Below are positions 35,410 through 36,132 of a stretch of 64,000 nucleotides of DNA, piece after piece (within the stretch, counting starts at the first letter, position 1; each line of letters begins with the position of its first letter). The stretch is from Marilutibacter chinensis. GTDB taxonomy: Bacteria > Pseudomonadota > Gammaproteobacteria > Xanthomonadales > Xanthomonadaceae. The DNA is taken from NCBI RefSeq assembly GCF_021725675.1, contig NZ_JAKJPO010000005.1, positions 154,965-218,964 of the forward strand. Direction: 5' to 3'. Both the position numbers and the translations under genes were made by a program. The notes beneath the pieces were generated by a model that was not told the origin of the DNA, searched no databases, and saw only the letters and a list, made by a program, of their open reading frames with translations.

Positions 35410-36132
35410 ATGGCATTCTGGTTCAAGCGCAGGAAGAAGCCCACGGCGGCTCCTGTCCCGGGGTCCGCCGCGGCGGCGGACCCGGCGACGACGGACGGAA
35501 GCGCGACCGCGAGTGCGAGTGCGAACGTCAGCGACGATGCAACCGCGGGCGCGAATTCGAACGCCAGCGATGGTGCAGCCACGGGCGGGAGCGGAGCCCC
35601 TTCCTCCCCAGCCGGTGGCGGAGGGGGCGACGCCCCCCCGGCACCGCCCCCGCCACGCTCGAGCTTCGGGCGCATGACCGACCGGCTGATGACCCAGTCG
35701 ACCGCGGCGCCGCCGGACGTGCCGGCACTGAATCCGCAGATCGTCCAGGCGGTGCAGATGAGCAATGCCGAGACGACCGCCTACGCGCCATCCCAGATCG
35801 CGATCGGACCCAACATGATGATCAGCCAGGCAGCCGGGTTGGTCGCGCAGTCGGCCGCGAGCTATTTCGACGGCGTCAGCAAACTGGCACTGGCCAGCCA
35901 GGGTGTGCTGCTCAAGGACATGACCGAAAGCCTGGTCAGCCAACAGCTGGAGAAAGCGGCCGAGGACGCGATAGGCGTGCTCGCGACCGACGTGATGATG
36001 GGGGCGGCGGCCGCGGTGGCGGCGGCTGCGGGCGCAATGGAGGCGGAAGCGGCGAGCTTCGCGATCGACCGGATCGATCAGAGCATCGCCAAGTACGCCG
36101 ATCTGCTGGCGAACCGTCGTGACAAGTCCTGA
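35410..36132 (+). CDS. Reb-domain protein with long low-complexity (Ala/Gly/Ser/Pro-rich) N-terminal extension
   Basis: ORF 35401..36132; ATG 35410 with GGGGGAGG RBS; N-terminal ~90 aa compositionally biased; central LNPQIVQAVQMSNAETTAYAPSQIAIGPNMMISQAAG aligns to Reb motif (NPQI..AV.Q.N......AP.Q.A). Confidence 0.65.
   Translation: MAFWFKRRKKPTAAPVPGSAAAADPATTDGSATASASANVSDDATAGANSNASDGAATGGSGAPSSPAGGGGGDAPPAPPPPRSSFGRMTDRLMTQSTAAPPDVPALNPQIVQAVQMSNAETTAYAPSQIAIGPNMMISQAAGLVAQSAASYFDGVSKLALASQGVLLKDMTESLVSQQLEKAAEDAIGVLATDVMMGAAAAVAAAAGAMEAEAASFAIDRIDQSIAKYADLLANRRDKS

Follow-up and report, generated by a model that had tools for sequence, protein, structure and literature searches.

The 240-aa open reading frame at 35410..36132 on the + strand (ATG 35410, TGA 36130-36132; intact) probably encodes an ortholog of Pseudomonas aeruginosa RapA (PA14_27680), an accessory component of R-bodies. 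Judging by similarity and by analogy with the P. aeruginosa protein, we put the probability of this reading at about 0.8. The database search returned a hypothetical protein of Marilutibacter (Lysobacter) chinensis that is 100% identical to the target. With BLASTP the target shares 64% identity (E 1e-66) with a 210-aa homolog at the rapA position of a P. aeruginosa locus (L001), and phmmer gives E 2.4e-59 against the P. aeruginosa cluster P0028, which stands at the rapA position and has 210 aa, the same length as the published seed paRebB WP_003108962.1. More than 260 homologs of the target were found, in Lysobacteraceae, Xanthomonas, Dyella, Pseudomonas, Chromobacterium and Paraburkholderia. 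An exact-sequence contig lookup for two of the family entries (P0001 and P0200) found nothing.

Is the gene context also that of rapA? The published PA14 order is rcgA, fecI2, rebD, rapA, PA14_27675, PA14_27660, PA14_27650, rebP1, rebP2 (PMC8322103), and in L001 it reads Crp regulator, ECF sigma factor, 80-aa RebB, RapA, a 713-aa gene, three small genes and two 106-aa RebB genes. In the window, i.e. the whole stretch of 64,000 nucleotides that was analysed, the order is ECF sigma, rebD, rapA, a PA14_27650-like gene, rebP1, rebP2 and Crp-type regulator, all on the + strand. The sigma factor (34066..34638; Pfam Sigma70_r2/r4_2, NCBIfam sigma70-ECF) is 50% identical to the gene at the fecI2 position of L001 and is taken as the FecI2 counterpart. 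The regulator (38051..38977, start codon uncertain; Crp/FNR family, Pfam cNMP_binding and HTH_Crp_2) is 55% identical to the gene at the rcgA position and is taken as the RcgA counterpart. The three RebB paralogs that the initial annotation mentioned flank the target and do match Pfam RebB (E 7e-26 to 1.5e-28). They are a short rebD-type gene of 79 aa (35091..35330, E 6.8e-26), a rebP1-type gene of 106 aa (36976..37296, E 1.5e-28) and a rebP2-type gene of 113 aa (37476..37817, E 1.5e-28). The target lies between rebD and rebP1/rebP2, and its proposed membership in the R-body gene set holds. By sequence comparison the cluster is orthologous to the PA14 reb cluster, and it is a group-2-type reb cluster. 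A promoter and terminator scan of the + strand from 33800 to 39100 found neither a sigma-70 promoter nor a terminator.

The arrangement is widespread. A locus survey with one genome per species returned 67 loci, and in essentially all of the ~60 with flanks the order is a rebD-type gene, a RapA-like gene, variable genes and one to four rebP genes on one strand. The genera covered are Lysobacter, Luteimonas, Xanthomonas, Dyella, Pseudomonas, Paraburkholderia and Chromobacterium, and in nearly all of the related loci a short Reb gene is ahead of the RapA-like gene. In the sister species M. alkalisoli both the locus and its chromosomal surroundings are the same, and two distant relatives from a profile search show the same rebD-rapA-rebP arrangement.

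Two other elements near the cluster should be noticed. Between the sigma gene and rebD there is a 94-aa open reading frame (34675-34959, + strand) with a coding-like GC3 of 0.86; it has no homolog in ~70 loci and no family match, and M. alkalisoli has no called gene there. On the - strand at 33187-33331, a tRNA-Lys(UUU) abuts an aberrant tRNA-like element to which ARAGORN gives a 2-nt 'anticodon'. In Rfam these elements score 51-53 bits as tRNA, with a sub-threshold YrlA (Y RNA-like) score of 35 bits, and the pair lies just upstream of the same-strand Band_7 (31433-32809) and RtcB (30136-31425) genes.

PA14_27680 was named RapA by Wang et al. 2021 (PMC8322103). Dorr et al. 2026 equated paRebB (WP_003108962.1) with rapA and with the secondary Reb group S4; this group accounts for 13% of the Reb-related sequences and is found together with groups 2 and 3 (PMC13430693). 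As described there, the N-terminal region of S4 proteins is extended and contains much proline and many charged residues; many of the diagnostic Reb motifs are lacking, and the extended C-terminus is unlike that of primary Reb proteins, whose signature motifs are QITD, NAV and QQQ (PMC13430693). The target agrees with this description: the similarity of its full core to P. aeruginosa RapA is significant, it is encoded alongside group 2 (rebP) and group 3 (rebD) genes, and it carries an 88-aa N-terminal extension and a C-terminus unlike domain 4 of primary Reb proteins. The initial annotation had called it an atypical Reb protein. It is rather a typical member of a separate named family, RapA/S4, where a long extension and a non-Reb C-terminus are the rule. 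M. chinensis RapA, though correctly observed, is an ordinary addition to that published family.

The suggestion that the protein serves as an accessory subunit fits what is known of RapA in P. aeruginosa. [quoted passage not shown] In the same strain mScarlet-RapA co-localised with GFP-RebP1 rings, partially (Pearson ~0.59) (PMC8322103). Co-purification and partial co-localisation in PA14 do not prove incorporation into the polymer. On a different explanation, proteins of the RapA type are not part of the ribbon; they would serve in assembly or regulation, or as effectors, would work for the most part without the ribbon, and would recognise Reb subunits only transiently through the Reb-like motif. 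Deletion of rapA caused a greater loss of C. elegans killing, irg-1 induction and host ribosome cleavage than deletion of rebP1P2 (PMC8322103). This stronger attenuation speaks for such an explanation and points to an R-body-independent role for RapA as well. The partial nature of the co-localisation is in its favour too, as are the role of S4 in the assembly process proposed by Dorr et al. (PMC13430693) and the conserved terminal peptide on a flexible linker described below, which fits a tether or interaction module. Recovery from the SDS-insoluble fraction at levels like those of RebP1/P2 argues the other way; therefore a stable component fits better than a transient factor, and we regard a largely ribbon-independent protein as unlikely.

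Could the protein have nothing to do with R-bodies, and be a phasin-like coat protein of storage granules that stands next to the reb genes by chance? UniRef labels three family entries (P0001, P0002 and P0062) 'Phasin domain-containing protein', and the core is Ala-rich and helical, as in phasins. However, the target and 83 scanned family members have no Pfam phasin match, the linkage to rebD and rebP holds over ~60 loci, and in P. aeruginosa co-purification and co-localisation tie the ortholog to R-bodies (PMC8322103). A phasin is thus scarcely credible here, and the accessory R-body component remains the preferred reading.

There is a further question of where translation begins. A Shine-Dalgarno-like GGGAGG, read from the sequence, lies at 35396..35401 on the + strand, 8 nt 5' of ATG 35410. 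An alternative GTG start at 35401 overlaps this site, and therefore ATG 35410 is the likely start. From there the protein opens with an aromatic-basic peptide, MAFWFKRRKKPT (aa 1-12, 35410..35445, +; consensus M-x-[WF]-[FW]-x-[KR]-K-K), followed by an A/G/S/P/T/D low-complexity linker (aa 13-88, 35446..35673, +) predicted to be disordered from its composition, its entropy and its AF2 pLDDT. Residues 1-88 together contain 25% A, 15% G, 14% P and 14% S, with low sequence entropy, and the AF2 pLDDT is below 50 at residues 16-72. The linker also holds an imperfect 36-nt tandem duplication (35506..35587, +; TRF period 36, 2 copies, 80% matches). The ORF is as first described, with a low-complexity N-terminus for which the AF2 disorder prediction agrees with composition and entropy, a Reb-like motif and an Ala-rich C-terminus. 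Among the quoted runs, GGGGG and APPAPPPP are present, and 'SASASA' is really TASASA.

The extension raises an alternative that must be weighed, namely that the real protein is a ~152-aa core starting at Met89 (ATG 35674) and that the rest is an over-extended ORF in a genome of 69% GC. Many database homologs are indeed annotated as 147-157 aa from the equivalent Met, and within the extension GC by codon position mainly reflects composition and cannot serve to diagnose coding. Yet the Shine-Dalgarno site before ATG 35410 is strong, with none before ATG 35674, and 46 of 60 related loci carry, upstream of the core and in frame with it, a Met that opens an aromatic-basic peptide like that of the target (MAFWFKRRKKP). 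The frame there is kept open across several genera despite numerous indels. The peptide is restricted, within these loci, to RapA homologs; distant relatives share the layout of peptide, spacer and core; and the published description of S4 includes an N-terminal extension (PMC13430693). The family-wide peptide and the Shine-Dalgarno site argue against a start at Met89, which we consider quite improbable. From the comparison of loci, the extension is really translated and is the rule in the family, not an atypical trait, and many of the 147-157-aa database entries are probably start-codon miscalls.

While the peptide is conserved, the spacer is not constant. The stretch from Met to core ranges from 29 to 205 aa across loci, with a median of 64; it is A/P/S/T/G-rich throughout, and repeats such as (TP)n or (AP)n are frequent. 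Three P. aeruginosa alleles (P0026, P0028 and P0043) carry APAPAPAP, APAPAP or APAP right after the N-terminal peptide, and these differences in AP copy number suggest that spacer length varies by slippage. The other proteins of the reb clusters were searched for the peptide with a shared targeting signal in mind, and none carry it. Divergent RapA variants without extension or start peptide occur in three loci, those of Pseudomonas sp. RHF3.3-3 (L049), P. botevensis (L060) and P. bananamidigenes (L061), each with a single rebP gene ~60 nt after the variant.

Is the core of RapA related to the Reb domain at all, as the initial annotation held? The motif LNPQIVQAVQMSNAETTAYAPSQIAI occupies residues 107-132. 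The claim did not hold at the level of Pfam RebB (PF11747; gathering score 24 bits), which gives no match at E<=1 in the target and none at E<=10 in 43 close homologs; weak matches appear in 3/40 distant relatives, with a best E of 0.0026. Pfam and NCBIfam scans of the protein gave nothing informative. More sensitive comparisons point to a remote relationship, and it is to RebD. Compared with the adjacent RebD by BLASTP, the target is 32% identical over 57 residues (pairwise E 1e-5), and a RapA-core HMM weakly matches the RebD ORFs of five loci (E ~1e-4). With hhalign, the comparison of 49 RebD sequences with a shallow alignment of RapA reached 43% probability. A broad alignment, to which distant relatives were added via a profile search of 1.84 billion proteins, reached 79% (P 1.5e-5) over 58 columns, with residues 104-161 aligned to RebD residues 4-61. 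The real score of 33.9 was equalled in 0/400 shuffles: the maximum was 19.2 among 200 column shuffles and 24.1 among 200 seven-column block shuffles, and the reversed alignment scored 10.7. Against RebP the probability was only 5%. The shuffle and reversal controls support the match, and from the alignments the Reb-like segment (aa 104-161, 35719..35892, +) probably reflects genuine but remote homology, closest to RebD. Its pattern in common with RebD is [LV]N-x-QI-[VT]-x-AV-x-x-[ST]N...AP-x-Q. The primary Reb signatures are changed or missing, with QIVQ where QITD is expected and no QQQ, and the length is 240 aa versus ~70-115 aa.

A 109-aa entry from the representatives search (P0173) has a RebD-like start, MTDNTAVNSQITDAITQTNVKVVA, and then the RapA core. 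Its sequence looks like adjacent rebD and rapA joined into one, probably through a frameshift or in assembly, and it may be the source of one of the three weak Pfam RebB matches among the distant relatives.

The remainder of the core, aa 162-240 (35893..36129, +), is a helical module supported by invariant alignment columns and AF2 helices. The alignments lead us to conclude that it is unrelated to the Reb domain. The Ala run AAAAVAAAAGA (aa 199-209) is invariant in RapA alignments. AF2 predicts helices at 85-98, 104-131, 134-152, 156-176 and 180-239 without a confident tertiary fold (pLDDT 63 for the full length and 50 for the core only; pTM 0.22-0.25). Foldseek of the AF2 models against the PDB gave no match, and neither the RapA profile nor RebP1, searched by sequence against the PDB, retrieved anything meaningful or any solved Reb or RapA structure. 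Several Lysobacter genomes have a second, ~137-aa paralog that consists of the C-terminal module alone (L064, 5884-6297; likewise L065, L066 and L067). This paralog lacks both the low-complexity extension and the ALNxQIVQAVQ motif and lies away from the reb genes; in L064 it adjoins radA.

Translational coupling of rapA with the next gene was also proposed. The downstream gene (36119..36847, +, 242 aa) has an uncertain start, either GTG 36119 or a GTG near 36257, and the 14-nt overlap with rapA exists only if the first is used. GTG 36119 has no Shine-Dalgarno site and sits in conserved RapA codons. The gene call in M. alkalisoli places the homolog 56 nt past the rapA stop, and in other genera it starts 30-150 nt downstream at an ATG with its own Shine-Dalgarno site. 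Coupling is not established, because GTG 36119 is without such a site and the overlap is missing in relatives; judged by these starts, it is possible in M. chinensis and is not a feature of the family. The downstream gene itself is conserved: its blastp homologs lie just upstream of rebP1 in >35 reb loci of several genera, and the gene at the PA14_27650 position in P. aeruginosa matches it at 1e-21. PA14_27650 had been stated by Wang et al. 2021 not to be conserved in other reb clusters (PMC8322103).

How might such a protein work with the R-body? Its expression would be controlled from within the cluster, by the ECF sigma factor and the Crp-type regulator, if these act like the PA14 regulators to which they are orthologous. 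The Reb-like helical segment (~58 residues, aa 104-161) may then dock onto, or co-assemble with, the RebP1/RebP2 polymer, and the conserved Ala-rich C-terminal helices could add tight helix-helix packing. By analogy with P. aeruginosa, where alone the experimental basis lies, RapA would end up in the SDS-insoluble ribbon. More speculatively, the N-terminus might be a flexible spacer, free to vary in length, that keeps the aromatic-basic peptide off the ribbon, the peptide perhaps being a tether or contact site. Taken further, this gives a scenario of RapA as a modular tether, in which the core anchors in the R-body and the peptide binds a partner (membrane, nucleic acid or cargo, for example), and the spacer length (29-205 aa) may change rapidly by repeat slippage. 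We offer it tentatively, as a doubtful but possible extension of the accessory-component reading. If true, it could explain why deletion of rapA is more attenuating than deletion of rebP1P2.

What does the locus add? A complete PA14-type reb cluster, rapA included, is present in a soil or marine bacterium of the Lysobacteraceae, which by itself adds little. The independent profile statistics support a remote Reb-like segment in RapA. Two observations are of possible use for R-body assembly or engineering: the conserved N-terminal aromatic-basic peptide on a spacer of highly variable length, and the conservation across genera of the PA14_27650-like gene upstream of rebP1, contrary to the earlier report. 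Both are minor additions, absent from the published accounts of the family (PMC8322103; PMC13430693).

The closest known system is PA14 RapA itself. The two proteins share 64% core identity, a position after rebD and before rebP1P2, the same cluster regulators, and the same build of aromatic-basic start peptide, low-complexity linker, ~150-aa helical core and invariant Ala run. They differ in the linker, which has ~76 aa in M. chinensis, is A/G/S-rich and contains GGGGG and the 36-nt duplication, while that of PA14 has ~40 aa with AP repeats. The interval between rapA and rebP1 holds one gene in M. chinensis and four in PA14, and the M. chinensis cluster has the Crp regulator as its 3'-most gene, while in PA14 this regulator stands at the 5' end. 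The experiments on R-body association concern PA14 RapA, and the M. chinensis system is known from its genes alone. With the RebD/RebB-type proteins (PF11747, 'Killing trait') the target has in common an all-helical prediction, the same operon-like cluster, and a segment (104-161) that can be aligned with nearly the whole Reb domain of RebD. Unlike them, it has no Pfam match and no QITD, NAV or QQQ signatures, is 2-3 times longer, and has in addition a disordered N-terminal region and an unrelated C-terminal module of ~80 aa. By description it can also be likened to RebC of Caedibacter taeniospiralis, a non-canonical, weakly Reb-related protein encoded within its cluster, for which an accessory role is proposed and which is thought to modify or assemble RebA/RebB (PMC13430693). 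However, ctRebC stood alone in the 2026 survey, representing no further sequences, while the RapA/S4 group is large (PMC13430693).
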